64,000 bases of DNA from Candidatus Xenobia bacterium (GTDB taxonomy: Bacteria; Vulcanimicrobiota; Xenobia; Xenobiales; QWHO01): the NCBI GenBank assembly GCA_045863235.1, contig BTUM01000006.1:96001-160000 (forward strand). Reading direction: 5' to 3'. The notes below the pieces were generated by a model. The model was not told where the DNA came from and ran no database searches. It saw only the letters and a list, made by a program, of their open reading frames with translations. Positions 29,511-61,158 of this stretch are shown here, piece by piece; within the stretch, counting starts at the first letter, position 1; the number at the start of each line of letters is the position of its first letter. A program made the position numbers and the translations under genes.

Positions 29511-31033
29511 CCCTGCCCGAGCTCAGGCGAGCCATTCGTCGCAGGTGGCTGCTCGTGCTTCTCACCATGGTGGCGGTCGAGTACCTCGTGACGATGGTTC
29601 GACCAGACCTGCTGCCGGGCCGAGCCAAGCTGGTGGTGTCTTCTTACGTGTCCAGCGCGAAACTCTTGCTGCGGCCGACATCGCCCAGGGTGACCGCCTT
29701 CGGTCGGAGCCTGGACGTGAACCCGCACGACTCGGAGACAGGCGAGCTCTGGTTTACCGACTTTCGTGGCGTGCAGGAGATTCTCGAGGATGCGGAGTTC
29801 CTGGCCAAGGTGTCTCAGGGTTGCCCCGGCTACAAGGCCGAGGACATTCGGGTGCGCGTTTTCGCCTACCCGAGCTCGATCGGATTACAGGACCTGAGCT
29901 CGATTCACGAGGAGACGGCACGAGAGGGCGCTGTGCAGGCCCTGGAGGGCTACGAGCAACAGATGGCCGAGCGTCTTGGCAAGAGGAAGCAGCGGCGGCT
30001 GCAATTGATCACTCTTTCCGTGGCTGAGACTTCCCCGGAGAAGGCGGAACGCTTGGCGCGAGTGGCCGTGGACGAGTTCCTGGTCGCGGCCCGAAAGAGG
30101 GCGGCGGGTGAGTATACCCAGCGCCGCGAGCAGCTCGAGGCGATGATGCTCCAAAACCGCCGGCAGACTGAAGCCGAGCTGAAGAAGTTCCGCCAGCTCG
30201 GAGGCGCTGTCGCGGCCGAGAATGCGGCTCTCGACGGCCCGCTGCACAAGCAGCTCATAGCGCTTGGGGCGCGCCGAGCCGCGGTGACCATAGAGCGTGC
30301 CACGCTGGCAAGCCGATTAGCGGACCTGAAGGCCTCGCAGCAGCCGAACAATACCGGGGTCTTCCCGACCTATTCCTACGTCGTCCAGAAGTCTCAAGAC
30401 CACGAACTGGAATTGCTGGCCCTGGCCAAGATTTACAAGCCAGACGACCCGATACTTGTGGATGCCCAGAACCGCCGGAACGCCTTCCAGGCGCTCATCA
30501 CGCAAGCGAGCGGAGACCTGCTGGCCTCTGAATGGAGCGAGGCAGAGAGCTCCCTACGGGGCCTGGATCGCGAGCTGGCCAGGTTGGAAGAGGAGATTGC
30601 GGCCATTCAGCGCAAGATTCCCAATGATACCCGCGCCAGCGCTCTGCGCCAGAGCGTCCTGCGGCTCAAGCTCTGGGATGCCACCCGCCTCGAGCTGATC
30701 GGCGCCACCTACCGCGCTCGGCTCCAGGAACGCCAGGCTGAAGCTCAGGGGACACTCGTCATGCTGCAGAGACCTCAGCTGGGCTCCCTGGCTGCTGGCC
30801 CCCGCGCTTCCAGCGGAGCAGCTTTGATCGCGATGCTGCCGGTAGGATTCTTCCTCGGAGTCGTGCTGGCGGGAATGGTTGAGAAATATTATCAGGTTAG
30901 CTACGCAGCGGATAAAATCGCCTCGCAGCTTGGAATCGAGCTTCTCGCAGCGGTTCCCGGGCATCCACGCGGGCGCAGCCGCTCCTGGCTTGCGTGGAAG
31001 CGAGGATTGGGAAGGAACAAGCGACCGGGGTAA
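29507..31033 (+). CDS. Polysaccharide co-polymerase #2
   Basis: ATGA overlap with the asnB stop; AIRRRW plus TM, coiled coil with YKPDDP, TM, LGIELLAAVP; visibly paralogous to 20472-21890 (AKLLLRP/AKVLLTP, WFTD). Confidence 0.8.
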   Translation: MTLPELRRAIRRRWLLVLLTMVAVEYLVTMVRPDLLPGRAKLVVSSYVSSAKLLLRPTSPRVTAFGRSLDVNPHDSETGELWFTDFRGVQEILEDAEFLAKVSQGCPGYKAEDIRVRVFAYPSSIGLQDLSSIHEETAREGAVQALEGYEQQMAERLGKRKQRRLQLITLSVAETSPEKAERLARVAVDEFLVAARKRAAGEYTQRREQLEAMMLQNRRQTEAELKKFRQLGGAVAAENAALDGPLHKQLIALGARRAAVTIERATLASRLADLKASQQPNNTGVFPTYSYVVQKSQDHELELLALAKIYKPDDPILVDAQNRRNAFQALITQASGDLLASEWSEAESSLRGLDRELARLEEEIAAIQRKIPNDTRASALRQSVLRLKLWDATRLELIGATYRARLQERQAEAQGTLVMLQRPQLGSLAAGPRASSGAALIAMLPVGFFLGVVLAGMVEKYYQVSYAADKIASQLGIELLAAVPGHPRGRSRSWLAWKRGLGRNKRPG

Positions 31034-31785
31034 GGAATCCTCAGTCTCTCATGTCCGACTGGGAAAAGCACCTCATTGTGTTGCGGGAGCCTCATTCTCC
31101 TCCGTCCGAGGCCCTGCGCAGCTTGCGCGCCCGCCTTTCGCGTAACCTGGCCTCGGGCAAACGCCGGTTGGCCATCCTCAGCAGTTGGCCCGGCGAAGGC
31201 AAGTCTCAGGTCAGCATCAATGTTGCCGCGTTGCTGGCCCAGCTCAGTTTGAAGACCGTGCTGGTCGACGGTGACCTGCGTAAACCGACCTTGACCAGTG
31301 TTTTCAGCCTGGAGGATCGCCTGGGCCTCTCAGACGTGCTTGAAGGTCGATGTACACTGGCCCAGGCCACCGTGCCGACTGGCTATGACAATCTGTTCGT
31401 CATTCCGCGGGGTCAGGCTCGGGGCAACCCCGCCAATATTCTCGGACGCGAGATCATGGGTCCGGTGTTCGACGAACTCAAAGAGTTCGGGTGCGCCCTC
31501 GTCGATACGCCCCCGCTGTCAGCCTGCGGTGACGCCCAGTTGATCGCCACCCATCTCGATGGGGCGGTGATCGTCGTGAATCCGGACAGATGGCAGGGAG
31601 AGGCCGAGAGGCGGTACCTGCGGCAAGTCCGGGAGATAGGGCTCGAGATCCTGGGTGTGGTCATCAATGGGGCCGACAACAAGCACTTTGCCCAAGGTTA
31701 CGGCTACGGTTATGGTTATGGGTATGGTTATGGGTATGGTTATGGCGACAACGGACGGTCTTCGGAAAATGGCAAGAAGGGATAG
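30994..31785 (+). CDS. CpsD/CapB-family bacterial tyrosine kinase
   Basis: EALRSLR, Walker A SSWPGEGKS, Walker A' VDGDLRKP, Walker B VDTPP, ILGVVIN, C-terminal (GY)8 tyrosine cluster. Confidence 0.93.
   Translation: MEARIGKEQATGVRNPQSLMSDWEKHLIVLREPHSPPSEALRSLRARLSRNLASGKRRLAILSSWPGEGKSQVSINVAALLAQLSLKTVLVDGDLRKPTLTSVFSLEDRLGLSDVLEGRCTLAQATVPTGYDNLFVIPRGQARGNPANILGREIMGPVFDELKEFGCALVDTPPLSACGDAQLIATHLDGAVIVVNPDRWQGEAERRYLRQVREIGLEILGVVINGADNKHFAQGYGYGYGYGYGYGYGYGDNGRSSENGKKG
31696..31746 (+). repeat. Hexamer repeat ggNtay encoding (GY)8G autophosphorylation tail
   Basis: ggttacggctacggttatggttatgggtatggttatgggtatggttatggc. Confidence 0.9.
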
Positions 31786-31789
31786 ACCC

Positions 31790-32593
31790 TCAGAGTCTGG
31801 AGGCGACGATGAGCGCCAAGTTGTCCTGGCCTCCGGGAAAGCCGCGCACTCCTCGGAGGGCGCTTTGGGTCACCTCGCGACAAACCGCCGCCGGGGAGGG
31901 CCCGGACCTCAGGGCGTTGACAAGGTCATCCGCTCCAACGGAGGTCAGGGGCGACTGGTAGTGACACTCGTTCACGCCGTCGGTAAAGGCGAGCAAGAGC
32001 TCATCTGGAGATACCTGGAAACTGAGCGCCTCGCCCCAGGTGGGCTCGCAGGGCGCGTCACCACGAAGAAACTTGTCGTTTCCCCGGGTCAGGAAGCGGG
32101 CCCCGGCAGGCCCGACCAGGCACAGGCTGGAATCACCCCAAGCCAACCCGAAGCCCTCCCCACTGCGGGGGTCAAAAACGGCCAGCAACAGGCTGGTGCC
32201 AGACCGGCCGGGCCACGGCGGCTCCGTCAGCCCGGTGGAGAGAAGCGCCAACTCACCCCTGTTGGCCGGGACCCGGGGCCAGTCTGCTACCCGCGCGAGG
32301 ATCAGGTGGCTGCTTGCCTGGCCTCGGTGGCCGTCGGCGACCGCCAGCAAGATCCTGGACTCTTCCCATCCGACCAGCAGGCCGTCCTCGTTTGGCTGAG
32401 CCCGATCGCCCTTGAAAGCGAGCGAGGGGGCGTCTGGATCGGATCCGACGCTGAGCGCGCAGGCGACCCCTTCCACCGGCTCGACCAGCGAGAATTCTCC
32501 ATAGCGGCTTTCATCCCGGCCCAGCATGACATGGGTCTTCACGCAAAGGACTTGACCACGCTTTTGCCCACCTCCTTCCGAACGGCCGGTCAT
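31790..32593 (-). CDS. PP2C/PPM-family Ser/Thr protein phosphatase
   Basis: NED, AVADGHRG, WGDSS, FTDGV, GQDNLA. True start is probably 32542 or 32527. Confidence 0.85.
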   Translation of the reverse strand: MTGRSEGGGQKRGQVLCVKTHVMLGRDESRYGEFSLVEPVEGVACALSVGSDPDAPSLAFKGDRAQPNEDGLLVGWEESRILLAVADGHRGQASSHLILARVADWPRVPANRGELALLSTGLTEPPWPGRSGTSLLLAVFDPRSGEGFGLAWGDSSLCLVGPAGARFLTRGNDKFLRGDAPCEPTWGEALSFQVSPDELLLAFTDGVNECHYQSPLTSVGADDLVNALRSGPSPAAVCREVTQSALRGVRGFPGGQDNLALIVASRL

Positions 32594-34838
32594 GGCTGAC
32601 CCCAGCTACGATACCCAGCTGACCTGGAGCCTGCGGCTCGCGCTGATCCTGGTGTTGGGTATCTCTGTGGTGGAGACGCCCGGAGTCACAGCGCCCCCGC
32701 CGGCGTTGACGCTCATGGCGGCCGCCTCGCTGACGGTCCTATCTGGCCTGGCGATGATCAGTCTGCGGCTTTGCCGGGTCAGCCTTGCCGGCTTGATTAT
32801 CGGGCTCTGCCTGGCGGGATGGTCGGCGCTTGCCTCCCGCGAATCTTACGACCCGTTCCTTTCGCAATTGGGCTTTGCCAGCTGGGTGGCGGGCGCTGGA
32901 GTCCTGTCGACAGTCCTGCTGACAGCCAGCAGCGGTCGGACAGCCTGGCGCGAGACAGCCCACGCCATACTGGCCCTGATCCTGGCCATCTCGTGCTACG
33001 GACTTCTTCTGTCTCTGCGCGGAGGAGGCTGGGCCCGGGCCACGTTCACCAACTCCGATTGCTTCTCGCTGCTGCCTTTGCTGGGTCTGCTGCTCGTGTT
33101 TGGCCTCCTGCCCCGATCCACAGGTGGCGAGCAGAGCTACCTGCTGGTCGTCAGCGGAGCTCTGGCGATCGCAGTCTTCTTGTCCGGCTCGCGGGCCGGC
33201 GCGCTTGGCCTGATGGCCGGCATCGGCTGCTACGTTCTGCTCTCGCTGGGAAGACAATGGGGAACTCATCGCATCCTGGTGGTCATGCTGATTCCTCTGT
33301 TGATGGGCGGAATGCTGGTCATTCTGATGAAGGGGCCGGCGGCTCTCTCAAAATGGACCAGCCTGGCAAGCGGCAATGACACGCTGGGGGTTACTTCCCG
33401 GCTGAGCATCGTCAAAGTGGGCGTGCCGCTGGGTCTGGAGCACCCAATCTTCGGGACCGGGCCCGGCACCTTCCACCTGGCCTATCAGTCCCGTCGGCCG
33501 CCCACCCGAGGCGAGGACTACATGAACGTCGCTCACAACGACTATGTGCAGATTCTTGTTGAGATGGGCGTTCCGGGTTTGCTCCTGTGGCTCGGGTTGG
33601 TCGGCCTGGCGGCCGGGATTGGAGTTTATGTCACCCGCCACGAGTCGAGCTCCGAGCACGCCGGAGCCACTGCCGGCATCATCGCCATGGGCGTTTACGC
33701 GCTGGGAAATTTTGCGGTGCCGGTACCGGCGGACCTCATGTTCAGCCTGGCAGTCGTAGGGCTGGCACTGACTCACACAGCCCATCCGCCATCGCGCTAT
33801 CTCCCTCAGATTGTGGTGGCCGTGGCTCTCGTTTTACTGGGAGCGAGCAGTCTTCGCACTGGCCTCGCCGTCTGGCAGAATAACCGCGCTCTGGCTCGAG
33901 CCCAGATCCTGGAGGGTCGGTTGGACTGGCCGGGCGGAATCGAGGCGCTGAACCAGGCCGGGTCCAGAGATGACATCCGCATTTTGCTCGCCCAGGCCCA
34001 CCTGTGGGAACGTCAGGGCCTTCTCACGGAAGACAGGTCCCGGCTGGATCGAGCTGGGGAGACGCTCCGTCGGGCCCGCGCCCTTAGTCCGCTCAATCTG
34101 CTGGTCATACTCCGTTTGGCTGACGTCGAGGAGGCGCGCGGCCATCTGGCGGAGGCTGCCCTTCTCCTGGAGCAGGCCAATCGCCAGGCTCCCCATACCG
34201 AGTATGTGCGACTGGCCATGATCCGCAATCAGGTCTTGCGTGGCGACCTGGCGGGAGCAGCGGAGGGATTGTCGGGCTTGACCAGTCACCCGAGCCCGGG
34301 TGCTCTGGGTGAGATCCTCGCCCTGCTCGAGCTGAGCGAGTCTGGGCGCGGCCTGGAGCTGCTCAAGAGTCGGCAACCGCTCACGCCCGGGCTGGCTCGG
34401 GCGGCCAGAAGGGCAGGCACTTTCTGCCTGGAACGAAAGGACCTTCAGGCTGCCCGGGCGTTCTTCGAGTTGGCCGCCCCCATCGATCGAGCCAGCCGGT
34501 TGGCTCTTGCCAAGCTGGAAACGGACCCTGCCAGGCGCCTGACGATGCTGGCTGAGCTCCTAAACGGCCCAGACAGCGAAGAGACGCAGGAAGCTCGCCT
34601 GCTTTGGGGGCACGAGGCCCTGACGCGGAAAGAGTTTGATCAGGTCGTTGCCGTGCTCGAGCCGGTGCTCGTGTCGGAGCCCGAGAGTGTGCGCTTACGG
34701 TTGTTGCTGTCCCAGGCCTATGTCGGTCAGAAGCGGATCAGCGAAGCATCCAGGGTTCTCGAGGATGGATTCGACTTTGATCAAGGTTCGCGGCTGCATG
34801 ACGCGCACAAGCGACTGAGCGTCACGGCCTCTCCCTGA
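32592..34838 (+). CDS. O-antigen ligase (Wzy_C) family protein with C-terminal TPR region
   Basis: Multiple TMs, ATFTNSD, SGSRAG, HPIFGTGPGTF, AHNDYVQILVEMGVPG; helical repeats after the last TM. Confidence 0.88.
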   Translation: MADPSYDTQLTWSLRLALILVLGISVVETPGVTAPPPALTLMAAASLTVLSGLAMISLRLCRVSLAGLIIGLCLAGWSALASRESYDPFLSQLGFASWVAGAGVLSTVLLTASSGRTAWRETAHAILALILAISCYGLLLSLRGGGWARATFTNSDCFSLLPLLGLLLVFGLLPRSTGGEQSYLLVVSGALAIAVFLSGSRAGALGLMAGIGCYVLLSLGRQWGTHRILVVMLIPLLMGGMLVILMKGPAALSKWTSLASGNDTLGVTSRLSIVKVGVPLGLEHPIFGTGPGTFHLAYQSRRPPTRGEDYMNVAHNDYVQILVEMGVPGLLLWLGLVGLAAGIGVYVTRHESSSEHAGATAGIIAMGVYALGNFAVPVPADLMFSLAVVGLALTHTAHPPSRYLPQIVVAVALVLLGASSLRTGLAVWQNNRALARAQILEGRLDWPGGIEALNQAGSRDDIRILLAQAHLWERQGLLTEDRSRLDRAGETLRRARALSPLNLLVILRLADVEEARGHLAEAALLLEQANRQAPHTEYVRLAMIRNQVLRGDLAGAAEGLSGLTSHPSPGALGEILALLELSESGRGLELLKSRQPLTPGLARAARRAGTFCLERKDLQAARAFFELAAPIDRASRLALAKLETDPARRLTMLAELLNGPDSEETQEARLLWGHEALTRKEFDQVVAVLEPVLVSEPESVRLRLLLSQAYVGQKRISEASRVLEDGFDFDQGSRLHDAHKRLSVTASP

Positions 34839-34841
34839 GCG

Positions 34842-35495
34842 TCAGGCTTTGAGCCCCAGTCCCGTCAGGATGCGATCCAGAGTCGAGCGGGGAGGAGGCC
34901 CGTTCAGCAGTGCGCTCTCATGGGTCACGATGACGCCCAGAATCTCGGTCCCCTGTAAAAGGAACATCCCGGGTAGATCGTCGATTCCCTTGTCTCGAAA
35001 AGCTCGCTTGGAAACGATCAAGATGACTCCATCGGCCATGGAGGCCAGAGGGAAGGCTGCGCTCGAGGCTGACAGGGCGGGGGTATCGATCAACACGAGG
35101 TCATAGTGCTCCACACAATCCCTGAAAAAAGCTCGGGCTTCCTGGCTCGGTTGCAGATTGAGCGTGTGGTCGGCCCGCTCCAGCCCCAGCAGGTCCAGGT
35201 TCGGTTGGATGGCTTGAAATAGGGGTCTTTTTCGCTGTAGGCAATCGCGAAGGGCGTAACCGCTACACTCGAAGTGGCGGCTCAGCGCCGGGCAGAGGAA
35301 ATCGCCGTCTACGAGCAGTACCTTCTGACCCGCGTTGGCCGCCATGCGGCCAAGATCGATGCAGATACTCGTCTTGCCCTCGTGGGGCCAACTGCTGGCC
35401 AGGAGGAAGGTGGTTTTCCTGTCCCGGCGCCAAGCCGCCAGACGCGGGAGCAGCGAGGCTAACTGCCAGGAAGGTTCATATTCTGTTAAATACAC
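34842..35495 (-). CDS. Second CpsD/CapB-like kinase lacking the Tyr tail
   Basis: SSWPHEGKT, LLVDGDFLCP, LIDTPAL, ADGVILIV, ILGVIV; no Tyr in the C-terminal region. Confidence 0.82.
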   Translation of the reverse strand: MYLTEYEPSWQLASLLPRLAAWRRDRKTTFLLASSWPHEGKTSICIDLGRMAANAGQKVLLVDGDFLCPALSRHFECSGYALRDCLQRKRPLFQAIQPNLDLLGLERADHTLNLQPSQEARAFFRDCVEHYDLVLIDTPALSASSAAFPLASMADGVILIVSKRAFRDKGIDDLPGMFLLQGTEILGVIVTHESALLNGPPPRSTLDRILTGLGLKA

Positions 35496-35534
35496 AGGGA
35501 AGGATTAATTTTGACCCGCTCGAAGTCCTGCCCC

Positions 35535-36359
35535 ATGTTGAACCGGATACCGCATACGCTGTTGGTCCTCTCCCTTACCCTCGGTAGCATGCCGATGGTG
35601 ATCGGCAAGCCCGACGCGCCCGAACAAGCGATTCAATTCGCACAGGTGAAGGAGGGGCCGTGGCAGGCGACGCCTGTCGAGGGCGCTAACTGGGTGCGGT
35701 GCCAGAGCGCATCAGGTGCCAGCGTGGAAGTCAGTCCGGAAGTCAAGCTCCGCCTCTCCAATGGCACGCTCGCTCGCTACTGCGCTGATGACCATGGCGG
35801 CTATCGGGTCACCGATGTTCAGGGTCGTCTTTTCGTGCGGATCGACGGCAAGGCTCCTGTAGTCGTCCAGGCCTCCGGAACGACGACGAGCGCGACCAGT
35901 GGTGAGTTCATGCTGGTCAGCAAGGACGAGAAGACCCAGTTCATGGTCTTTTCCGGCGACGCAGCCCCCGTTTCGGGCGATACCACGGTGGCAGAGGCTA
36001 CGGTCCAGGTTCCGGCCGTCACAGATAACGGTGAGTTACTGGCGGGACCGGATATTCGTGATCGCGATGACGGCACTGACGAGGGCGGTCGCGATCGTGT
36101 GCGCGGCACCAAAACGTCGACACCCCCAGCCCCGCCGCCGCCAGGTCCGGTGACGCCGCCGCCGCCCGCCATTCCGCCGGCCCCCCCGCCCAACGTGACG
36201 CAGCCCCCGCCTCCCTCGCCTCCGCAGCAGGTTGCCGATCCTGGCGGTGGGTTCGATGCCGCGTGGTTGGCGATTCCTCTGGTCGCTGGTGGTTTAGCTG
36301 CGCTTCTTGCCGGCGGCGGTGGGGACAACAACGTTCCTCTCGCTCCTGCCAGCCCCTAG
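35535..36359 (+). CDS. Exported FecR-like beta-domain protein with Pro-rich stalk and C-terminal TM anchor
   Basis: Signal-like N-terminus; LRLSNGT...QGRLFV...FMVFSG FecR-like pattern; poly-Pro linker; AWLAIPLVAGGLAALLAGGGGDNNVPLAPASP terminus. Confidence 0.65.
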   Translation: MLNRIPHTLLVLSLTLGSMPMVIGKPDAPEQAIQFAQVKEGPWQATPVEGANWVRCQSASGASVEVSPEVKLRLSNGTLARYCADDHGGYRVTDVQGRLFVRIDGKAPVVVQASGTTTSATSGEFMLVSKDEKTQFMVFSGDAAPVSGDTTVAEATVQVPAVTDNGELLAGPDIRDRDDGTDEGGRDRVRGTKTSTPPAPPPPGPVTPPPPAIPPAPPPNVTQPPPPSPPQQVADPGGGFDAAWLAIPLVAGGLAALLAGGGGDNNVPLAPASP

Positions 36360-36369
36360 CATGCCTGAC

Positions 36370-37134
36370 TCAGCGCACGGCAATCGATAGAATGTGTGAG
36401 GCGGCTTCGGCCGCCTCCTCGCGTACGCCCCGAAAGTGGGGACCACCGGAGTCAGTCACCTGTCCGAGCTGGTGGAGGGCTCTCGCCCCAAGCCGCTTGG
36501 CGGCCACGGCGTTGCGAAAGAGCTCGAGTGTGGCTTGACCGGCTGTAAGCTCTTCCAGGCGGAGTCCGGCCCCCGCTTCGAAGCGAATGGCCAGGACCGA
36601 GATGCTGGTCGCATGCTTGGACCCGGGAGGGGGCAAAGCCCAGTGTGTCCGTTCCGGGAGCCGCATCATCAGGGGTCGGGGGAACGGAAGTAAGCGTCCG
36701 TGCTCGTCGAAAACGGCGTATTCATCCGAGTAGTACTCGGCCCCGGCCTCGACCAGGGCCTTGACCAGGCTGGACTTGCCCTGGCCCGATCGGCCCGGAA
36801 TGACGATTCCCCGTCCGCGCCAGCAGACCGAGCCTGCATGCACAAAGATGAATTCGCTGCGGGTGGCCATCGTTAGATGAACGTGTCTTCCCAGGGCTTC
36901 CCCTAGAGAGTCCTCATCGGGGCCCGACAGGAGGTGCTCGCCGTCCAGCGTTGCGCAAAACATCGTTTCGCCAGGTCCAGGGCGGAGAACTCGATAGTCT
37001 TCGACCCCGGTTCGAGCTGGACGCGCTTGCCAGTCAGGCAGCATGATCCACGGGCGTATCTTTTCCAGCAGGGAGTCGCAGTCCGACCTCAAGCTCAACG
37101 CCACCCCAAACTCTTCCACGTTCACGGATCCCAC
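36370..37134 (-). CDS. HPr kinase-related P-loop kinase
   Basis: FVHAGSV...GIVIPGRSGQGKSSLV...YYSDEYAV...PFPRPL, the HprK-related signature. Confidence 0.88.
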   Translation of the reverse strand: MGSVNVEEFGVALSLRSDCDSLLEKIRPWIMLPDWQARPARTGVEDYRVLRPGPGETMFCATLDGEHLLSGPDEDSLGEALGRHVHLTMATRSEFIFVHAGSVCWRGRGIVIPGRSGQGKSSLVKALVEAGAEYYSDEYAVFDEHGRLLPFPRPLMMRLPERTHWALPPPGSKHATSISVLAIRFEAGAGLRLEELTAGQATLELFRNAVAAKRLGARALHQLGQVTDSGGPHFRGVREEAAEAASHILSIAVR

Positions 37135-37176
37135 GGAGAGAGGGTTTTGTTCGAGTTTTGCGAACTCCTGCGCACC

Positions 37177-37983
37177 ATGTCTCTAATTCCCAAACATCGT
37201 GAACGCTCATCGTGTGCTGACAAGCATGACACCCTCAAGTGGACCTGCGGATTCTCGGTTAGCGCGGAAGGATTTCGCATTCAAGTTGAGGGGATCGAGC
37301 GTGCCGCCCTGATTGGGGTAAGGACGAACGATGCGGGGCTGTTACCGGTTCTGCGCTCTTTCTTGCCTCCTCATTGGCAGGAGGTCGAGGTAGAGGAGGT
37401 GGATCTTCTCTACTCCTTCTTGGCGGGCGGCGAAGGTCAGCGCAGGGGGGTTCGCAACTACAACCTTTCCTACGTGAACTGCACCATGATGGGTCGCGAG
37501 CTGGATCCAGATCAGGCTCTCAGCGGCTTTCGCTTGCTGATGTATGTCCAGACCCTCTACAAGCTTCCGATCCTCGAGAAGTCCGTCATCGTCCGCGCCA
37601 GTCTCGCCGGCGATTCGAGACGGATCGTCGCCCTGGTGGCGGAGCAAGAGCCCGGTGAGACTTGGAAGTCGAATCTTCAGAAGACGGGTTTGAAGCCTTT
37701 GACTTGCCCCTACCTGCTCCTGGACAAGGACGGGCAGCTCGTCGAGCCTTTTGCTCGCATCATGGGACTGCCCGGCCCTTTGACGGATATCGTCTTTATC
37801 GCCTCTGAGCCCTCGAGCTTTACGCCGGGCCAGGGCGTGCTGAGCCTCTTTTCCCATTCTCTCGGGACCAGTGAGAGCGTTCACGGCCAGGAGAGACTCG
37901 GGGCGCTCGCCAAAGCGATGCAGTCGACGCGCATTCACAACGTCTCCGATCCAAAGGAGCTCGTGGGCGCCCTGGCACTTTGA
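37177..37983 (+). CDS. Degenerate HPr-kinase-like paralog (no Walker A)
   Basis: Parallels the divergent kinase along its length: IGVRTND...LPPHWQ vs LSLRSDC...LPDWQ; YLLLDKDGQLVEPFAR vs YAVFDEHGRLLPFPR; FTPGQGVLSLFSHS vs LTAGQATLELFRNA. The P-loop is replaced by VAEQEPGETW. Start estimated. Confidence 0.65.
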   Translation: MSLIPKHRERSSCADKHDTLKWTCGFSVSAEGFRIQVEGIERAALIGVRTNDAGLLPVLRSFLPPHWQEVEVEEVDLLYSFLAGGEGQRRGVRNYNLSYVNCTMMGRELDPDQALSGFRLLMYVQTLYKLPILEKSVIVRASLAGDSRRIVALVAEQEPGETWKSNLQKTGLKPLTCPYLLLDKDGQLVEPFARIMGLPGPLTDIVFIASEPSSFTPGQGVLSLFSHSLGTSESVHGQERLGALAKAMQSTRIHNVSDPKELVGALAL

Positions 37984-39032
37984 CCGGTTGCAGTCCCGCG
38001 CTCCGGCGCTTGTTCCTTGCCTACGCTCGGGACGAGCCTTTTGCCCTGGTGCCCCCCGATCATGAGAAGTTTCTGGCCGAATGTCGCTATCACGGCCTGA
38101 TGGGCTGTCTGGCCGATCTGGTCGAGCGCCATGGCCATTCGAGTCGCGAGTTTGCTTCGTTGTGCCGCGAGGCTTTCAAAGCAGAGTTCTTCAAATGGGC
38201 GCGTTACCAGGCTCTGCAAAACCAGCTGGAGGAGGCTTTGGACAGAGCCGATCTGGACGCTCTGCTGCTGAAGGGGGCGGCGCTCAGGATGACCGTCTAT
38301 CGAAGACCGGGTCTGCGTCCACTTTCCGACATCGATCTCCTCGTCCGGCCGGAAGCCTTCGATGAGACGGCGCGGGCCCTGGTGGGAATCGGACTGCTTT
38401 CCTCTCCGCACGGGAACCGGTTCTCCGACTTCCAGGGTCGGAACGTGGATTTGCACGGTCCTGAGCTTGGCCGAGTCGAGGCTGGCTGCGGGCTGCGGAG
38501 CCAGGATTTGTGGGCGGGCAGCCAGCCCGTTCCGGGCTCGCGCGTGTGGAGAGTGCTCGAGCCGCGCACGAATCTGGCGCATCTGGCCGTGCACGCGCTG
38601 AAACATTCTTACAGTCGCCTGGGATGGCTGATGGACATCGAGCTGGTGGCGCGAGAAGCAGGGGTGCGGCAAATCGAGCACGTGGCAGCCGCTCGCGCCG
38701 TTCAGTCTGCGCTCTATGTTTGTGGAGAGCTGGTGGGACGGCGTGCCGACCCCCCCGGGCGCTTCCAGGGCAGGATTCTCCTGGGAATGCTGGCGCGGGA
38801 TCTGCACCCCCTGGGCCAGATGTTGCTGGCCTGGCATCAGCCCCGCTGGCGCGACCGCTTCGATTTTCTTCGGGAGTCGGCGAGCGAAGCTCCGGCATAC
38901 GAGACCACCGATTCCGTGACCAGCCGAATGGTACGCCTGAGCATCAGGCTGGTCAGGCTTCTGGTCGAGCAAGTTCTTCCCAGGGGCAGGAAATCCATGA
39001 GTCGGGACGAAGCCCGTGCACCTGATGATTGA
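37980..39032 (+). CDS. Nucleotidyltransferase (NTP_transf_5-like)
   Basis: LLKGAAL...YRRPGLRPLSDIDLLV, VDLH, HLAVHALKH, WLMDI; TTGA overlap with the upstream stop. Confidence 0.9.
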   Translation: MTGCSPALRRLFLAYARDEPFALVPPDHEKFLAECRYHGLMGCLADLVERHGHSSREFASLCREAFKAEFFKWARYQALQNQLEEALDRADLDALLLKGAALRMTVYRRPGLRPLSDIDLLVRPEAFDETARALVGIGLLSSPHGNRFSDFQGRNVDLHGPELGRVEAGCGLRSQDLWAGSQPVPGSRVWRVLEPRTNLAHLAVHALKHSYSRLGWLMDIELVAREAGVRQIEHVAAARAVQSALYVCGELVGRRADPPGRFQGRILLGMLARDLHPLGQMLLAWHQPRWRDRFDFLRESASEAPAYETTDSVTSRMVRLSIRLVRLLVEQVLPRGRKSMSRDEARAPDD

Positions 39033-39735
39033 AAAATTGCCGCGTATCAGAGCAGGTGTGTTGCCCACGGAACTGGGTGACGAGTTACTGATTTATTCTC
39101 CCGAGACCGAGACGGCGCACTGTCTGGGTGTCGTTGGAAAGGTCGTCTTTCATGGTTGCCAGTCCGGAATGGAGCCTGGCGATCTGGTCGCGCGGGTCAC
39201 CCAGATGGGGATTGAGGACGGCGAAGCTGCCATGCTGGGAATGCTGGAGCAACTGGCTGAAAAGGGCATTACGGAGCCAGCTCCCATTGCGTCCGAGTTC
39301 GACCGACGGCGGTTTCTCGCGTTGACCGGCCGCTGGGCCTCAGCGATGGTCGTGGCTTCGGCTATCGCTCCCAGGCCTGCGGAGGCCGGTACTTGTTATG
39401 AGTGCTTGACGGTTGGCGCTCCTACCTTCGCTCCCGTGAACTGTAACACGTGCAGTCAGATCTGTAAGTTTACCGCGGCCGGGGCCTGCCAGGCCACAGC
39501 CGTTTGCTGTTTCGAGTATCGTCTCTCGAACACCACCATCGACCCGACCGGGGCCTGCAATCTCGCCGAGGCTCTCGGCCTCTACGGGTGCCGATCGATT
39601 CCCGCCGCCCCGAGCGTTTTCCATTCTCACTGCGGGACCGCTCGGACCAACTGCATCAGTGCCGGAGGAACCCCGGGAACCCTCTACTATTGCTGCGCCT
39701 GCGCCGGTAACGCTCCGACCTTTAGCTGCACCTAG
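39025..39735 (+). CDS. PqqD/RRE-domain protein fused to a twin-arginine-like signal and a Cys-rich core (RiPP-like precursor)
   Basis: ELGDELLIYSPETETAHCLGVVGKVVFHGC...LEQLAEKGI (PqqD pattern); FDRRRFLALTG...APRPAEA; 115-aa C-terminal region with 16 Cys. Confidence 0.82.
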   Translation: MIEKLPRIRAGVLPTELGDELLIYSPETETAHCLGVVGKVVFHGCQSGMEPGDLVARVTQMGIEDGEAAMLGMLEQLAEKGITEPAPIASEFDRRRFLALTGRWASAMVVASAIAPRPAEAGTCYECLTVGAPTFAPVNCNTCSQICKFTAAGACQATAVCCFEYRLSNTTIDPTGACNLAEALGLYGCRSIPAAPSVFHSHCGTARTNCISAGGTPGTLYYCCACAGNAPTFSCT

Positions 39736-39757: not shown

Positions 39758-39792
39758 AAAGGCCGGCTCTTTGGCCGGCTTTGTGTGTTTTG
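39758..39792 (+). terminator. Possible terminator after the Cys-rich precursor gene
   Basis: ggccggc-tctttg-gccggct stem (one G-U pair), followed by ttgtgtgtttt. Confidence 0.45.
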
Positions 39793-53453: not shown

Positions 53454-54821
53454 TCAGACCTCCACGGCCTGGTCGTGCAGAGCGTGCAAAACCTCGTCTA
53501 CGTCCTGGCCGGAGCTGGCGAAGTCGGCCGTAGCCACCTTCACCTTGAGCGAGCCGTTCAGCGAGCTGCCCAGACCCTGCTTGAGACTGGTCACCATCGC
53601 ATCGCGCAACTTGGGCCCCCAATTCGGATCGCGCCGGACCAGCAGCGCGTAATGGCCGTCCTGAAGCATGCCCAGTATGTCCCCGTGCAGCATGCACTGC
53701 TTGAGCGCGGTGTACAGGTTCCTGCGCAGCTCCTTCTGCTCGCGCACCGGCAGCTCGTGCAGCCCCTGCACTCGAACCGAGACCAGCCCCTGGCTGCCGT
53801 CGCGCTGGACGGCCATCTGGGTCAGGCGATCACGGAACACGATCGGGGGCAGGCAGTCCTCCATCAGATCGTCGCCGGCCAGCTGTGAGGTCACCCCCCG
53901 GAACAGGCTGGCGTTGTAGAACGAGTCGCCGGCCCAGCGGGCGATGACTCCCAGCACCTTGACCGAGAGACTGTGAAAGCGTGCAAAGGGAAGAGCGTCT
54001 ACCGAGATGACCCCGATCACGTTGCCGTTGCCCGGGTTGATGATGGGGGCGCAGATCAGCCTTCGGTAACGGCGCTCGGGATCGGGCCCGTCCGGCGGAG
54101 GCGATTCGAGATCGCGCGCGGTCACGGTCTGCTTCTTCTGAACCGCCGACCAGAGCAGGTCGTTGCCGGGGGCAAGGCTGGCTGCTTCCTCGCTCACCGA
54201 GTCCCAGCCTCGAGTGGCGGCCAGGTTCAGCTTCTGGCCCTTGAGCAGGTAGAGCGAGCTCTCGCTGGCGCCCAGGTAGTCGCAGACCAGCTCACAGATC
54301 GCCGGGTTGAGGTCTTTCTCATCCAGCACCGAGAGGCGCCTGGCCAGCTCGGAAAACGACTGGACGGTCGAGACCTCGCCCAGCACCCGGTCGTTCAGCT
54401 CCCGGTTGGCGGCCGTGAGGACGTTGACCCGCTGGCGCTGGCGCTCGCTCTCCGCGCGCAGCTCCTCGAGCTCGGCCCGAGCCTGGGAGAGCTGACGGTT
54501 GCGGGCCTGCTGGGTGGTGCCCAGCACGAAGCCGGTGGCCACCAGCGTGAAGATGATGACGGCATCGGTGGAGCGATCCACGTGCAGCGTCTGCCCCACC
54601 GACATCATGCCGGCGATGTAAGCGGCCACCCCCACGAAGGATGCGAAGAGGGCCTCGGTGCGTCCGTAGTGGATCGCCTCGAGCACGATGACCAGGAGAT
54701 ACGGGTGCAGCATGAGGCCCAGGAACGCAAAGTCGTGGGCCGGGGTGAAGACCGCCCCGATAAACCACAAGACCAGGTACAAGAGCAGGGTCTCGGCGAC
54801 GTATCCATATCGTTGAAGCAT
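53454..54821 (-). CDS. pelD: PelD-like protein (TM + coiled coil + GAF + degenerate GGDEF-like domain)
   Basis: N-terminal TMs with HPY...HYG, coiled coil, GAF region (LICAPI...GVISVDALPF), C-terminal GGDEF-like pattern; stop/start overlap with pelG. Confidence 0.72.
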   Translation of the reverse strand: MLQRYGYVAETLLLYLVLWFIGAVFTPAHDFAFLGLMLHPYLLVIVLEAIHYGRTEALFASFVGVAAYIAGMMSVGQTLHVDRSTDAVIIFTLVATGFVLGTTQQARNRQLSQARAELEELRAESERQRQRVNVLTAANRELNDRVLGEVSTVQSFSELARRLSVLDEKDLNPAICELVCDYLGASESSLYLLKGQKLNLAATRGWDSVSEEAASLAPGNDLLWSAVQKKQTVTARDLESPPPDGPDPERRYRRLICAPIINPGNGNVIGVISVDALPFARFHSLSVKVLGVIARWAGDSFYNASLFRGVTSQLAGDDLMEDCLPPIVFRDRLTQMAVQRDGSQGLVSVRVQGLHELPVREQKELRRNLYTALKQCMLHGDILGMLQDGHYALLVRRDPNWGPKLRDAMVTSLKQGLGSSLNGSLKVKVATADFASSGQDVDEVLHALHDQAVEV

Positions 54822-56332
54822 CAGGCTTTCTTGCCTCCTCGTTGGGGCTGGGCCTCGACCATCTGGCCATTCTTGCGGGTGTAGGTCCCGAAGCGGCCAT
54901 CGGTCATCATGTCGCTCTGGAAGGGGATCTCCTCGGCGACGGGTTGGCTCATGAAGGTGAGATACTCAAGGTGCTGCAGCTTCTTGAACAGCCACAGGGT
55001 GCCCAGGACCAGGCCGGTGGTGCAGCCCACGAAGAGCCCCAGACCGTACCACTCCATGCCTGCCTGCAGGGTCCACAGAGCGGTCAGGAAGGCGACCAGG
55101 AAGGTGACCAGGGACGTGATCAGAGCCTGGCGGTAGAACTGGAAGTAGTAGGTGATCACCAGCACGAACAGGAGCATCGCCTGGGGAGCGGCGCCCAGCG
55201 CACAGATGCGGAACAGGTGGATCTTGTAGGCGTCAAAGTCGTAGAAGCCCTCCAGGAACGGGGCGAATACCAGCGCGCCCAGGGTGCACACCAGCTGCAC
55301 CACCATGATGGAGTAGAGCGCGTCCTTGAGGTTCTGGGTGAGCTTCTGGCGCCGCTGGATGACGATGTCCAGGCCCTTGCGAGCCAGCACGGCGTTGTAG
55401 AAGCCGCGGTAATCTTCGTAGAAGTCCGTCTCGGTGTGCACGAAGAAGACGATCACCGCCGGCAGGATGCTCATCTGAGCAAAGAAGGCGGCCAGGTCGA
55501 TGGGCGGAAAAGCCCACAGATACTCGCCTCGCATTAGCTCGCGGCCGGGCCCGGGGACGAACCAGTAGACGAAGCTCGAGATCCAGAGGGCCAGGTAGTA
55601 GAAAAAGCCCGAGGCGGCCATGGCTGGATAGCGCTTGGCATAGGGCCACCAGTCGAAGTTCCAGCGCGCGTGGAACTCGAACTCGCGGGCCAGGGCCGTG
55701 AGCGTAATGGCCAGGATGGTCACCTGGCCCAGGATCAGGGCCACCAGGTAGGCCAGCACCGGCTCCTGGGTCTTGTGCAGCCAGGTGAAGCGCAGCAGGT
55801 AGGCCATCACCACCGTGACGATCATGCCGCTGGTAAACGCGCTGCCGACCAGGTGATGGGCTCGCACGGCCCCGATGAAGGCCATGATCACCCAGACTTC
55901 GGCCACCAGCACGAACAGGCAGACGGCGCCCAACCGGTAGGCCCAGGTGGTGTCGATGCCGAGCATGAAGACGAAGCCCACGATGGCGTGGAAGACCACG
56001 TTGACCATGGTCACCGAGACCAGGGCGGGAAAGTGCGAATCGAGCCGCAGCGCGTCGAGCTGGTCGGCCAGGTAGCGTATCACCGCCAGCTGCAGCGGCG
56101 CGGTGGTGATCAGGGAGAAGGCGAAGATGTAGATCACCGTCTCCATCAGGAACTGGCTGTAGATGTGGGCCAGGCCCGTGCGGGCGATGAGCAGCTGACA
56201 GACCACCAGGCTGATCACCGTCAGGACCCAGGGGCCGGAAGCCACCAGGGTGGCGTGGATGTAAGCCTTGGTGAAGCCCAGGAAGGTGCCTTCCTGGGTG
56301 TAGGCGCGCAGTTTGAAGCCGATGCCTGCCAT
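54821..56332 (-). CDS. pelG: Pel exopolysaccharide transporter PelG
   Basis: MAGIGFKL N-terminus, SGPW, RYLAD, ETDFYEDYRGFY; about 12 TMs. Confidence 0.95.
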   Translation of the reverse strand: MAGIGFKLRAYTQEGTFLGFTKAYIHATLVASGPWVLTVISLVVCQLLIARTGLAHIYSQFLMETVIYIFAFSLITTAPLQLAVIRYLADQLDALRLDSHFPALVSVTMVNVVFHAIVGFVFMLGIDTTWAYRLGAVCLFVLVAEVWVIMAFIGAVRAHHLVGSAFTSGMIVTVVMAYLLRFTWLHKTQEPVLAYLVALILGQVTILAITLTALAREFEFHARWNFDWWPYAKRYPAMAASGFFYYLALWISSFVYWFVPGPGRELMRGEYLWAFPPIDLAAFFAQMSILPAVIVFFVHTETDFYEDYRGFYNAVLARKGLDIVIQRRQKLTQNLKDALYSIMVVQLVCTLGALVFAPFLEGFYDFDAYKIHLFRICALGAAPQAMLLFVLVITYYFQFYRQALITSLVTFLVAFLTALWTLQAGMEWYGLGLFVGCTTGLVLGTLWLFKKLQHLEYLTFMSQPVAEEIPFQSDMMTDGRFGTYTRKNGQMVEAQPQRGGKKA

Positions 56333-57849
56333 CAGAGCATTCCCACCGCGGTGCGGTCATGGGCCTTGCGGCACTCTTCATACACCTCGCGGTAGCGGGC
56401 GAAGAGTTGCTCCTGGCGATAGTACTTCTCCACTCGAGCTCGTCCCGAAGCCCCCATGGCTTTGCGAAGGTCGGGGTCCTGATACAGTTGCACGAGCGCA
56501 TCGGCAGTCTGGTTGGGGTTGCCCACCCAGGTCAGCACGCCGGCCGGGCCCAGGGCCACGTCCTCGGCTTCCCCTCCGAGCAGCAGCTCGCCGCAGGAGC
56601 CGACATCGGGCGCAATGCAGGGGAGGCGGGCGGCGAAGCCTTCCAAGATGACCATGGGCTGACCTTCCGAGATGCTGGTGAGCACCTGCACGTCGAAGAC
56701 GGGATAGTACTTGCGCACATCCACCCGGCCCATGAAACGGACGATGTGACCGAGATCCAGGGCTTCCACCATGGTCCTCACCTCGGCATAGTAGCTGGGG
56801 TCCTCATCGGTGGGTCCGCACAGGAAGACCTCCAGCCCGGGAATGCGCTCCTCGGCCAGCTTGACGGCCTTGATCAGGGTCTTGAGGTCCTTGATGGGCA
56901 CGATGCGGCCCACGAACCCGACCCGGAATTTGCTCTCGTCTCTGGGCATCGCCAGCTCGCTGGTCTGCTCCAGGGCTTTCAGATCGACCCCGTTGGGGAT
57001 GAGCTTGATCTTGCTGCCGTCGGCCCCGAACTGGATCTGCAACTCCTTGTTCTCGCGGTGCAGGGTGTAGATGAAGTTGGCATTCTCGTAGCAGGCCTTG
57101 CCCAGTCCCACGAAGAGGTTGATCCAGATCTGCTTGAAGGTGCCCAGCCCTGACTCGAGGTTGACCGAGGAGGCCTTGTCCACGTAGATCCAGTCGGCCT
57201 GGGTGATCTCGATGCGGCGCTCATTCACGTAGAGCCCGTGCTCGGTCAAAATCAAAGGCCGCCGGTAGCGGATAGCCGCGATGACCCCCATGAAGCCGCT
57301 CCAGCCGGTGGTCACGGCGTGGTAGACGCGAGCTCTGGGAATCTCCGCCGTGAACAGCTTGAAGAGGGGAAAGTAAGCGTAGCGCCAGGTCCAGAAGAAA
57401 TCGGTGAAGGACACGCGCGGTCCGAAGTCTTGATACATCTGAGTCAGCACATTCCAGGACTCGAGCGAGAAGGCCAGGTCGCGAAACGAGAGGGCGGGGG
57501 GGATGTTGTCGGTGCCGCACAGGTGAGGGAAGGCCCGGGCGAAACCTCGCCCGTGGCCGTTGATCAGCCCCCCCAGGAAGGGTCCGGCTTCGCGCCAGGC
57601 TTTCTCTTTGTCTCCGAAGGTGGTCTGAGGGAACCTGGTGATCACGTCGTAGAGGTTGAACTCGCACATGTCCATCAGGTTGGGGGGCAGCTTGTAGCGC
57701 ATCCGCCTCTCGGTGCTGGCCGACGGAGCCAGGTAGACCAGGCCGAACTTCAGGTCGGGCATTCCCTCGATCAGCTGGTGGATCCAGGTGGAGACCCCAC
57801 CCGGGACATAAGGATAGGTGCCTTCGCAGAAGTAGCAGACGTCAAGCAT
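56332..57849 (-). CDS. pelF: Pel GT4 glycosyltransferase PelF
   Basis: EGTYPYVPGGVSTW, TEHGLYVNERRIEI, GRIVPIKD, TSISEGQP. Confidence 0.95.
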   Translation of the reverse strand: MLDVCYFCEGTYPYVPGGVSTWIHQLIEGMPDLKFGLVYLAPSASTERRMRYKLPPNLMDMCEFNLYDVITRFPQTTFGDKEKAWREAGPFLGGLINGHGRGFARAFPHLCGTDNIPPALSFRDLAFSLESWNVLTQMYQDFGPRVSFTDFFWTWRYAYFPLFKLFTAEIPRARVYHAVTTGWSGFMGVIAAIRYRRPLILTEHGLYVNERRIEITQADWIYVDKASSVNLESGLGTFKQIWINLFVGLGKACYENANFIYTLHRENKELQIQFGADGSKIKLIPNGVDLKALEQTSELAMPRDESKFRVGFVGRIVPIKDLKTLIKAVKLAEERIPGLEVFLCGPTDEDPSYYAEVRTMVEALDLGHIVRFMGRVDVRKYYPVFDVQVLTSISEGQPMVILEGFAARLPCIAPDVGSCGELLLGGEAEDVALGPAGVLTWVGNPNQTADALVQLYQDPDLRKAMGASGRARVEKYYRQEQLFARYREVYEECRKAHDRTAVGML

Positions 57850-58987
57850 CGCGCGCTCCCAACCAGAAATGAGCCAGCTCGCTGATGGCGTGGCCCTCGC
57901 GCTTGCGGGGCAGCTTCACGGCCCAACCGCTTTCGAGTGCCCGCTTGCGCACGGCGCGAACGAAACCGAGCTGGTCATTCTTCTGGCCTTCTTCAAAGAG
58001 GTCTTCCAGATAGAGCAAGAGCGAGCCCAGGTCGCCCGGGTGCCGGGTCATGGTCGATTCCAGCAGGGTCAGCGACTCCTTGTGCAGCCCGCGGTCCCGG
58101 AACAGGGCGGCCAGGAGCACGGGTAGCTTGAGGTTCTTGGGGTCGGCCGCCATGGCTTCCAGAGTGTGAGCCACCGCCAGTTCCCAGTAGTAGGGCTCAA
58201 GCCCCTCTTCCATCAAGCCCGACTTCATGTATTCGTGGTAGAGCGATGCCAGGGAGGCCTGCAGGCCGGCCGTCTCGGTGCGATAACGCAGCTGCTCGGT
58301 CATCTGGTAGATGCGCACGACGTAGGAGCGCTGCAACTCGTTAATCTTGCTCATGGCATACTGGAAGACCTCGGGGCGCTGGTCTCCCGCCATCCGGTTG
58401 AGCAGGCGTCGCTGGCGCGGGTCGTCGGATTCGGCCAGCCGGTCCACGATGGCCAGGGCGGTGGCCACGTCGGCATAGGGGATGATGTCCACGATCGGCT
58501 CGGTGCGGATCTCCTCGCGGAACTGGACCTCGAGAGGAGCCGAGAAGTCGCGCTCGGGGGGCGCGTTGGATTGAATCCACATTTCAGCCCGCACCACGTC
58601 CACCAGGGGGGTCTCCTTGGGCTGGCCGCGCGACAGGAGGTAGACCAGCATGCTGATCAGGCTGCCGTAGACGCCGCCGAAGAGGCAGAAGACCAGCGTG
58701 ACGATGGCCCAGCCCAGCGCTGCCGGGCTGACCGGGCTCTTGGCCATGTACGTACCAAAGCTGATGGCCAGTGCCCCCACCACGTAAAAGAAGAAGCTGG
58801 CCGTGGGGAAGCTCTCCTCGGCTCGCAGGACTCCCAGTGTTCCAGCCAGGCTGGCCACGAAGCCCAGAATCCAGCACAGCCAGGAGACGATGTTGGGGAG
58901 CGGCTCGTGAGGTCGGGGAGGGCGCTCGAGGTAGCCCGGGACGGTCTGGTCCACGCTGGTGTCGATCCGAACGGTGTCGGCGATCAC
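57842..58987 (-). CDS. pelE: PelE-like membrane protein with helical-repeat/TPR region
   Basis: N-terminal TMs, EPIVDII...DQRPEVFQYA, LASLYHEYMKSGL; directly upstream of pelF. Confidence 0.7.
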   Translation of the reverse strand: MIADTVRIDTSVDQTVPGYLERPPRPHEPLPNIVSWLCWILGFVASLAGTLGVLRAEESFPTASFFFYVVGALAISFGTYMAKSPVSPAALGWAIVTLVFCLFGGVYGSLISMLVYLLSRGQPKETPLVDVVRAEMWIQSNAPPERDFSAPLEVQFREEIRTEPIVDIIPYADVATALAIVDRLAESDDPRQRRLLNRMAGDQRPEVFQYAMSKINELQRSYVVRIYQMTEQLRYRTETAGLQASLASLYHEYMKSGLMEEGLEPYYWELAVAHTLEAMAADPKNLKLPVLLAALFRDRGLHKESLTLLESTMTRHPGDLGSLLLYLEDLFEEGQKNDQLGFVRAVRKRALESGWAVKLPRKREGHAISELAHFWLGARDA

Positions 58988-59355: not shown

Positions 59356-59363
59356 CGACGTCC

Positions 59364-61139: not shown

Positions 61140-61158
61140 TTTCGCTTGCTCCTCCGAT

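Follow-up and report, generated by a model that had tools for sequence, protein, structure and literature searches.

The window analysed here is a stretch of 64,000 nucleotides from contig BTUM01000006.1 of a Candidatus Xenobia bacterium. Our subject is a cassette of four predicted open reading frames (ORFs), all found between positions 36370 and 39735, that encode an HprK-related kinase, a degenerate paralog of that kinase, a nucleotidyltransferase-fold enzyme and a candidate precursor of a peptide made on the ribosome and modified after translation (RiPP). A single ORF gives the precursor its PqqD-type RiPP recognition element (RRE), its twin-arginine signal and its cysteine-rich core. The kinase gene (36370..37134, minus strand) is transcribed in the opposite direction to the others, its start lying 42 bp from the pseudokinase gene (orf2; 37177..37983, plus strand). 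The nucleotidyltransferase gene (37980..39032, plus strand) opens with a TTG codon overlapping the orf2 stop and is followed by the gene for the 236-residue precursor (39025..39735, plus strand), so that neighbouring genes on the plus strand share 4 and 8 nt. A terminator-like hairpin of 10 pairs (39759..39782, plus strand) lies 3' of the precursor gene; promoter- and terminator-like sites in the region are no more numerous than in shuffled sequence. RNA-library contigs overlap parts of the precursor gene in each of 4 runs compared, from three studies, one contig (683 nt) spanning nearly the entire gene. This is weak evidence, as the runs were themselves retrieved by means of this stretch and may contain DNA, and such contigs can neither prove transcription nor rank the genes. 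An earlier note, made from the sequence alone, had described a kinase divergent from a coupled run of degenerate paralog, nucleotidyltransferase and RRE-bearing precursor with a Tat-like signal and a 16-Cys core, and each of these parts held up in the analyses below.

The kinase has intact Walker A (GRSGQGKS), HAG (VHAG) and SDE (YYSDE) motifs and is without the N-terminal DRLGW-type motif of single-kinase systems. TIGR04352, the top NCBIfam match for 15 of 15 kinases, is reached at E 7e-15 and 54.8 bits, under its cut-off of 200, while the only solved structure matched by the kinase profile is HprK (1ko7), weakly, at E 0.088. The orf2 product matches nothing in Pfam or NCBIfam and has lost all three catalytic motifs; hhalign relates it to the kinase family with 99.3% probability over 230 columns, and it keeps N-terminal DxLxW and GxRxYxLxY motifs. 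The nucleotidyltransferase belongs to NTP_transf_5 (PF14907, E 1.7e-29), with its DxD motif intact and a KG...SDID motif present.

In a quick tree of 61 rows, which gave long-branch warnings, 13 rows that lack the motifs, taken from relatives, fall together (SH-aLRT 98) within a larger group (SH-aLRT 99) that also holds the single active kinases of Acidobacteriota and of contig C29 of the genome studied here (G000). Most members of that larger group carry the DRLGW-type motif, which the active kinase of the window and its own group lack. The pseudokinase adjoins precursors in relatives too and, judged from this conservation, is not a local ruin; the simplest reading of the sequences would be one kinase split into a catalytic and a docking partner. 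A predicted complex of kinase, pseudokinase, precursor residues 1-135 and ATP scored 0.46, compared with 0.00 and 0.00 for unrelated partners and 0.67 with the pseudokinase replaced, and we do not use it either way on binding. A second kind of degenerate kinase paralog, which belongs with the active kinase of the window in the tree's grouping, occurs at L023:10851-11627, L025:7351-8223 and L028:6676-7443. The kinase of contig C29 (G000:C29:13692-14516) is a lone, motif-intact enzyme of the DRLGW type with no precursor seen adjoining, and it could serve precursors in trans.

The window precursor has no Pfam match of its own. A structure model built on 103 sequences (mean pLDDT 84.8) places the RRE at residues 1-88 (39025..39288, plus strand; pLDDT 85-97 over residues 1-90), where three strands followed by three helices form the winged-helix PqqD/RRE fold. 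Its best structural match is the lasso-peptide RRE TbiB1 (Z 10.3, root-mean-square deviation 1.6, 81 residues aligned), in agreement with Foldseek, and the next is another lasso RRE, 6jx3 (Z 10.2). Among the 103 aligned family members, PF05402 matches 78, TIGR04353 is the top NCBIfam match for the RRE in 61, and the Tat-signal model TIGR01409 matches 19.

Behind the RRE, residues 89-121 (39289..39387, plus strand) form a signal segment with the twin-arginine motif DRRRFL, an h-region and a predicted AEA signal-peptidase site. The segment shows the RRxFL motif and AxA site of twin-arginine translocation (Tat) substrates, and tatC is present in the genome; the uncharged h-region is a family feature (free of charged residues in 235 of 284 distinct aligned members) that is weak in the window protein, which has one Arg there. 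In place of an N-terminal signal, the two arginines stand at residues 94-95, behind the RRE. They are conserved in 99 and 98% of the 284 members, accompanied by FL-like residues and by Ala at -1 and -3.

Across the family, a register runs from this signal into the core. Conserved positions of the segment include V(-12), S(-10), P(-6) and P(-4), and we counted the register ungapped from P(-6) in the 276 members that have it. P(-14) is found in 84% of these, V/I(-12) in 93%, S/T(-10) in 94% and A(-1) in 93%, with a spacing of 8 between P(-14) and P(-6) in 233 of 234. Just past the cleavage site, position +2 is Ser or Thr in 250 of the 276 members, compared with 17% Ser or Thr in the remaining core positions and with 18 of 140 heuristically chosen signal-peptide proteins of this genome, a rough control. 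Ser or Thr at +2 is retained, too, in Thr- and Gly-rich cores that lack the Cys pattern. The window protein has Thr123 at +2 and Met at -14; position -17 is Ala, Val or Ile in 85% of the members. The model has a strand at residues 110-114 (positions -12 to -8), the leader region in which RRE-bound leaders form a strand (PMC13381572). When the model is aligned to 4wd9_A, the match continues as far as its residue 117, paired with residue 1020 of the chain (Z 8.6, root-mean-square deviation 3.5, 97 residues aligned). This entry is NisB with the NisA leader, to which we presume the high chain numbers belong.

The predicted mature core comprises 115 residues (39388..39735, plus strand) and holds 16 of the 18 Cys of the precursor, including two CxxC and one CCxC motifs. 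Modelled alone, it forms a single domain (pTM 0.81, pLDDT 87.3). A fold search with this model gave no chain at Z >= 2 among 48,161, which does not show a new fold, and neither a Foldseek match at E <= 0.001 nor a usable Atlas match. Across 22 close sequences, fourteen of its Cys are kept in 21 or in all of them. Family-wide, Cys numbers are even in 232 of the 258 Cys-containing cores and odd in 26, with a further 18 cores lacking Cys, consistent with the mostly paired Cys expected from the earlier note.

Variation lies in the cargo: the N-terminal 125 residues are conserved across the family, while what follows ranges from knottin-like six-Cys peptides (this spacing in 15 of 121 parsed cores, 30 of 151 proteins being left unparsed) to bigger Cys-rich domains, tails rich in Thr or Gly, and a vWA/YfbK protein. 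The small disulfide-rich cargo proposed previously fits the window protein, but cargos of the family are not necessarily Cys-rich. In the vWA case (L037:4883-6847, on G007:C11), the RRE and twin-arginine leader front a 480-residue protein, followed by an NTP_transf_5 gene. We also noted tandem double-RRE precursors (L025:8261-9361, L027:8353-9378 and L035:7532-8551) and, at L028:7414-8379, a membrane protein of MauE/DoxX type, encoded between kinase genes and the gene of a Cys-rich precursor, that might take part in disulfide handling.

The family is very large. A five-sequence profile found 3,506 cluster representatives at E <= 0.001, of which the best 150 were examined. Within 61 related genomes, 19 have a precursor match, one of which (L040) is a stand-alone RRE, leaving 18 genomes with a fused precursor (14 established by reading the sequence, four by the span of the match); in all close relatives precursor and RRE share one ORF. 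The kinase family is present in all 18, occurs alone in three and is unmatched in 40, a co-occurrence among kin that are not independent and that include small genomes without both. NTP_transf_5 genes are broader, reaching 28 of the 61 genomes. One genome (G013; L041-L059) stands apart with 21 scattered matches, the highest number, whose varied cargos hold 1 to 24 Cys; it has five kinase-family matches elsewhere or nearby.

To look at linkage, neighbourhoods were scored from all ORFs rather than called genes. A kinase-family or nucleotidyltransferase gene accompanies the precursor in 18 of the 21 loci found in relatives once G013 is set aside, in 2 of 19 loci of G013, and in 38 of 79 loci kept from 225 further relatives, one genome per species, that were selected with an acidobacterial-type pattern which biases the set; these 79 loci are nearly all from Acidobacteriota. 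The enzyme lies within 1 kb of the precursor, by ORF limits, in 54 of the 58 enzyme-linked loci, and 25 of the 79 acidobacterial loci, many of them incomplete, hold both a motif-intact kinase and a nucleotidyltransferase. Gene order is shuffled among the relatives, with the cluster retained. A recurring acidobacterial order is GT4, Wzy_C, TPR, secreted protein, TPR, kinase, precursor, nucleotidyltransferase and often a C25 peptidase. Large C25-peptidase proteins adjoin precursors in 26 of the 79 loci (L061-L139), with or without kinase and nucleotidyltransferase. The association of precursor homologs with the two enzymes anticipated by the earlier note is therefore borne out, G013 apart.

The cassette itself sits in a glycan locus of about 35 kb (approximately 18 to 52 kb of the window) that contains glycosyltransferases, a priming transferase, Wzc-type kinases, a Wzx flippase, an export protein, a Wzy_C-TPR protein, a WbuX-type amidotransferase and a sulfotransferase. 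The Wzy_C (O-antigen ligase-like) and TPR protein (32592..34838, plus strand) has homologs in five other precursor loci of relatives; it gives no match at E 1e-4 to the acidobacterial Wzy_C proteins, so that the two are linked by family only. Next to the cassette lies a secreted FecR-like protein with a Pro-rich linker and a C-terminal membrane segment (35511..36359, plus strand), found near the cassette in three relatives and immediately 5' of the pseudokinase in G004. Secreted beta-rich proteins of this build, in which a linker rich in Pro or Gly is joined by a membrane segment at the C-terminus and a short tail that ends in (N/A)xSP, adjoin the cassette in the window (35511-36359, plus strand), at L021, L023 and L025 and in 15 acidobacterial loci (for example, L061:2054-2716), and may be a second surface component. 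We do not claim homology between the FecR-like protein and the acidobacterial secreted neighbour, since hhalign gave 17% and aligned the C-terminal segment and tails alone.

Other genes of the window include a Wzc-type tyrosine kinase that stands alone and has a long tail of Gly-Tyr repeats (30994-31785, plus strand), a shorter Wzc-type paralog (34842-35495, minus strand), a SpoIIE/PP2C-type phosphatase (31790-32593, minus strand) and a 561-residue ORF of repeated PTGQV units without a Pfam match (16087-17772, plus strand). Pel-type exopolysaccharide genes, with PelG and DUF3492 glycosyltransferase matches, follow the glycan locus (53454-63924, minus strand).

Elsewhere, glycan genes, labelled by recurring clusters only, accompany 9 of 18 enzyme-linked loci of relatives and 22 of 38 acidobacterial ones, and just 3 of 41 acidobacterial orphan loci. 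The glycan context is frequent, then, but about half of the enzyme-linked loci (9 of 18 and 16 of 38) show no glycan gene in the fetched flank. A second fused precursor of the same genome, with a six-Cys core and immediately followed by an NTP_transf_5 gene (G000:C10:48367-49929; L024:8320-9929), is surrounded by genes of fatty-acid or polyketide type, and no glycan gene was seen there.

Does the cassette belong to a lasso-peptide system? The genome's two matches to the lasso B2 peptidase (PF13471) lie on contigs C46 and C2, leaving this contig without one. An asparagine-synthase gene of the window (27.5-29.5 kb) keeps its glutaminase domain and an N-terminal CGI motif, which mark an ordinary amidotransferase and not a lasso cyclase. 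As a lasso test, Asp or Glu was sought at core positions 7-9, which are Leu, Thr and Val. The non-lasso reading of the earlier note is upheld on these grounds; the absence of radical SAM, YcaO and lanthionine enzymes that it reported holds for the 36 window ORFs scanned, a part of all window ORFs, and no ABC exporter was seen among the same 36. For leader removal, the SipW-like model TIGR02228 gives one match in the genome, below cut-off and on another contig. A C25 enzyme was considered as leader peptidase and set aside, none being found in the genome by a search that also matched nothing in control genomes. Unfused YxxP/RR precursors were likewise sought in this genome, and none was convincing. 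A separate lasso-type cluster is encoded at G000:C46:45284-50920, with NTP_transf_5, an ABC transporter, a discrete RRE, a B2 peptidase, an Asn-synthase-like protein and a short YxxPxL precursor.

From the observed gene set, RRE fold, signal motifs, family-wide Ser or Thr at +2 and co-location, we propose the following mechanism. The RRE, as modelled, would bind its own signal and h-region in cis. The kinase would then phosphorylate Thr123 in the cytoplasm, by analogy with the register of the LPP system discussed below, and the nucleotidyltransferase would cap this phosphate with a hexose or nucleotide, by analogy with PsmN. The pseudokinase, as keeper of the N-terminal motifs lost from the active kinase, might serve in docking. 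The core would leave via Tat with the RRE staying inside, signal peptidase would likely cut after AEA, and disulfides would form outside the cytoplasm. The cis grip of the RRE on the signal would delay export until modification is complete, its tethering to its own substrate would let the family do without the Tyr/Trp of YxxP, and a bulky group added before export could be the reason to use Tat. We give the chain up to export (phosphorylation of Thr123, capping and Tat export) slightly better than even chances, and any tie of the product to a surface glycan less. Step by step, our trust falls from export and cleavage through disulfide folding, phosphorylation at +2, cis RRE binding, capping and pseudokinase docking to the surface-glycan role.

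Two claims of the earlier note change shape here: the Ser/Thr modification it foresaw would fall on the single residue Thr123 and not on a Ser/Thr-rich core at large, and its nucleotidylation is made doubtful by the sole tested NTP_transf-type relative, PsmN, which was needed for hexose, not nucleotide, on the phosphate (PMC6993621).

Several observations weigh against the proposed mechanism. The alignment behind the +2 register was built from members cut at AxA, so that the register is not free of circularity, although the count at +2 is ungapped, and the members include kin that are not independent. The window protein has Met at P(-14), an Arg in the h-region and an h-region hydrophobicity of 1.05, compared with a family median of 2.1. 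No enzyme lies nearby in 17 of the 19 G013 loci or in 41 of the 79 acidobacterial ones. Cys numbers are odd in 15 of the 21 closest relatives, and model confidence at residues 101-120, which include the strand noted above, is just 60-63. A folded domain of 90 residues preceding a Tat signal is also unusual. Three further points come from the LPP system as described in PMC13381572: LppK did not phosphorylate an S3T variant, and the window protein, like 30% of members, has Thr at +2; Y-16 is required for RRE binding there, and Tyr/Trp at the equivalent position, -17, is found in no member class; and deletion of lppN was without effect in a heterologous host.

S/T(-10), conserved as strongly as +2, could be the actual site, and it is central to the first alternative, in which RRE and signal form a cis export chaperone comparable to the stand-alone proofreading chaperones of Tat, the enzymes act on S-10 or on the RRE as an export switch, and the core stays unmodified. 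Very different cargos sharing the unit, the 480-residue vWA protein included, and the many precursor copies far from any enzyme would suit such a device, and chaperones that bind Tat signals are known (PMC3316669, PMC3712460). It leaves unexplained, however, both the excess of Ser and Thr at +2 over the controls and the match to the LPP register, and for both enzymes it is the core that is modified by those relatives that have been tested. We consider it unlikely, if still worth weighing.

The twin-arginine segment might instead be an RRE-binding leader or a membrane anchor, carrying an LPP-like modification and either cut by an unlinked peptidase or left anchored. A signal situated 93 residues into the chain, an h-region more conserved than export alone requires and the C25 peptidase in 26 of 79 acidobacterial loci speak for this. 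Against it stand the near-invariant arginines with their FL-like residues and Ala at -1 and -3, the paired Cys, which suggest an oxidising compartment, and the lack of a SipW, B2 or C25 gene at the window cluster (the C25 search having matched no control genome). We judge this distinctly improbable, and retain Tat export of a core modified at +2.

The position of the cassette inside a glycan locus, the preference of glycan genes for enzyme-linked over orphan loci and the spread of NTP_transf_5 beyond the precursor raise a further alternative, in which kinase, pseudokinase and nucleotidyltransferase decorate sugars or lipid carriers of the glycan pathway and the precursor is a co-regulated surface protein, not a substrate. 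Yet the enzymes abut precursors at loci where no glycan gene is seen, such as that on G000:C10, and a substrate that bears an RRE points to recruitment of enzymes; we hold this reading very improbable. The weakest alternative, a core that binds Zn or Fe-S through its CxxC/CCxC motifs in the cytoplasm, and would need Tat for that reason, with the RRE aiding loading, draws on the odd Cys numbers of most close relatives and on the general ability of Tat to transport cofactor-loaded proteins, but is scarcely credible, as the odd number traces to a single column, family-wide counts are even with knottin-like spacing in part of the cores, and the kinase and nucleotidyltransferase would have no role.

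That column is position 162: all 15 odd relatives have Cys there and all 6 even ones do not, so that parity follows C162 in 21 of 21 and the remaining Cys would be paired, with one thiol to spare. The window protein alone has an extra Cys, C210, which may pair with C162. This agrees with disulfide folding after export of the modified core.

If the proposed chain is right, the same enzymes have a folded substrate that is exported and offers one predicted site, and the question of their role becomes testable with four genes. Fusing an RRE to the substrate it serves and to a signal would be a layout new both to RiPP precursors and to Tat substrates, and the family would be a large untapped source of bacterial disulfide-rich miniproteins. 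According to PMC12710340, 21% of PF05402 proteins are over-long with no other annotation, and the fused design would account for some of these too. A possible joining of the product to the glycan, suggested by the earlier note, draws on co-location only. A bolder form of it, which we hold to be quite unlikely, is that the unit of RRE, signal and x-Ser/Thr serves as a portable tag giving any cargo, from knottin-like peptides and new Cys-rich domains to Thr-rich tails and vWA proteins, a phospho-sugar handle at +2, a Tat exit and, by way of that handle, a tie to the surface polysaccharide made by the neighbouring Wzy_C ligase-like protein. If true, this would be an unknown protein-display pathway, with libraries of up to about 20 miniproteins in a single genome among rarely cultured bacteria of soil and sludge.

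Comparison with known systems shows precedent for the chemistry. The closest known system is that of the Linear Polyphosphorylated Peptides (LPP; lppA-K-B-S-D-N) of Bacillota, a non-lasso RiPP family in capsule loci described in 2026 by Popov et al. (PMC13381572). The LPP leader has P-13 and V-11, and LppK phosphorylates S+3; the 15 steps from Pro to Ser equal those from P(-14) to +2 here. Both systems have an HprK-like kinase, an NTP transferase and an RRE with no cyclase, a conserved leader before a variable C-terminus, and a Ser near the core start (Ser/Thr in register here). Cleavage is of the signal-peptidase type (predicted here), and the capsule loci of LPP find a parallel in the frequent glycan context. 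In contrast, the LPP RRE is discrete and here it is fused to the substrate; LPP has a YxxPxVL leader, whereas our family has an aliphatic -17 and keeps PxV/I, with Met for Pro in the window protein; and LPP has its own SipW-like peptidase and MsbA-like exporter, neither of which was found in the cluster. A twin-arginine leader with AxA, a folded Cys-rich core, frequent Thr at the site and an added pseudokinase are particular to the present system. It works like LPP but fails membership for want of a discrete RRE, YxxP, peptidase and exporter. The same paper states that the role of phosphorylated lasso peptides and LPPs, and the reason for their placement in capsule loci, are unknown.

Phosphorylated and phosphoglycosylated lasso peptides (paeninodin with PadeK; pseudomycoidin with PsmK and PsmN) share the kinase and NTP-transferase types, the lasso-type RRE and the PxV/L register. 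PsmN is required for one or two hexoses on the pseudomycoidin phosphate (PMC6993621), with no in vitro activity noted (PMC11912497). They differ from the present cluster, which is without B2 peptidase or cyclase, has a core of 115 residues and has its predicted site near the core N-terminus, not at a C-terminal Ser. HPr-rel-A (TIGR04352 kinase and TIGR04353 PqqD-family chaperone) provides the best NCBIfam matches for kinase and RRE, but the window kinase falls short of the TIGR04352 cut-off and TIGR04353 describes a chaperone without fused signal or core; our literature search found no paper on this system. Bufferins (DUF2063/DUF2282; PMC12710340) likewise have a precursor with an export signal that is modified in the cytoplasm with the help of an RRE, but use a Sec signal, an RRE on a separate protein and iron-dependent oxidative chemistry in place of a kinase and nucleotidyltransferase.

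RREs fused to enzymes are listed by RRE-Finder (PMC7470986) and its 2025 update (PMC12710340); the accessible parts of both are silent on RREs fused to substrates, which may appear in their supplements, and a term search of the LPP supplementary files available gave enzyme-fused or discrete RREs only. Nor did we find a fusion of RRE, twin-arginine signal and core described in the literature searched, subscription journals and bioRxiv supplements lying outside it. The claim of an undescribed system therefore stands for the fused design and gives way for the enzyme set, which LPP, not named in the earlier note, already has. Taken globally, the cassette combines known enzyme types with an undescribed precursor design, carried by a very large family.

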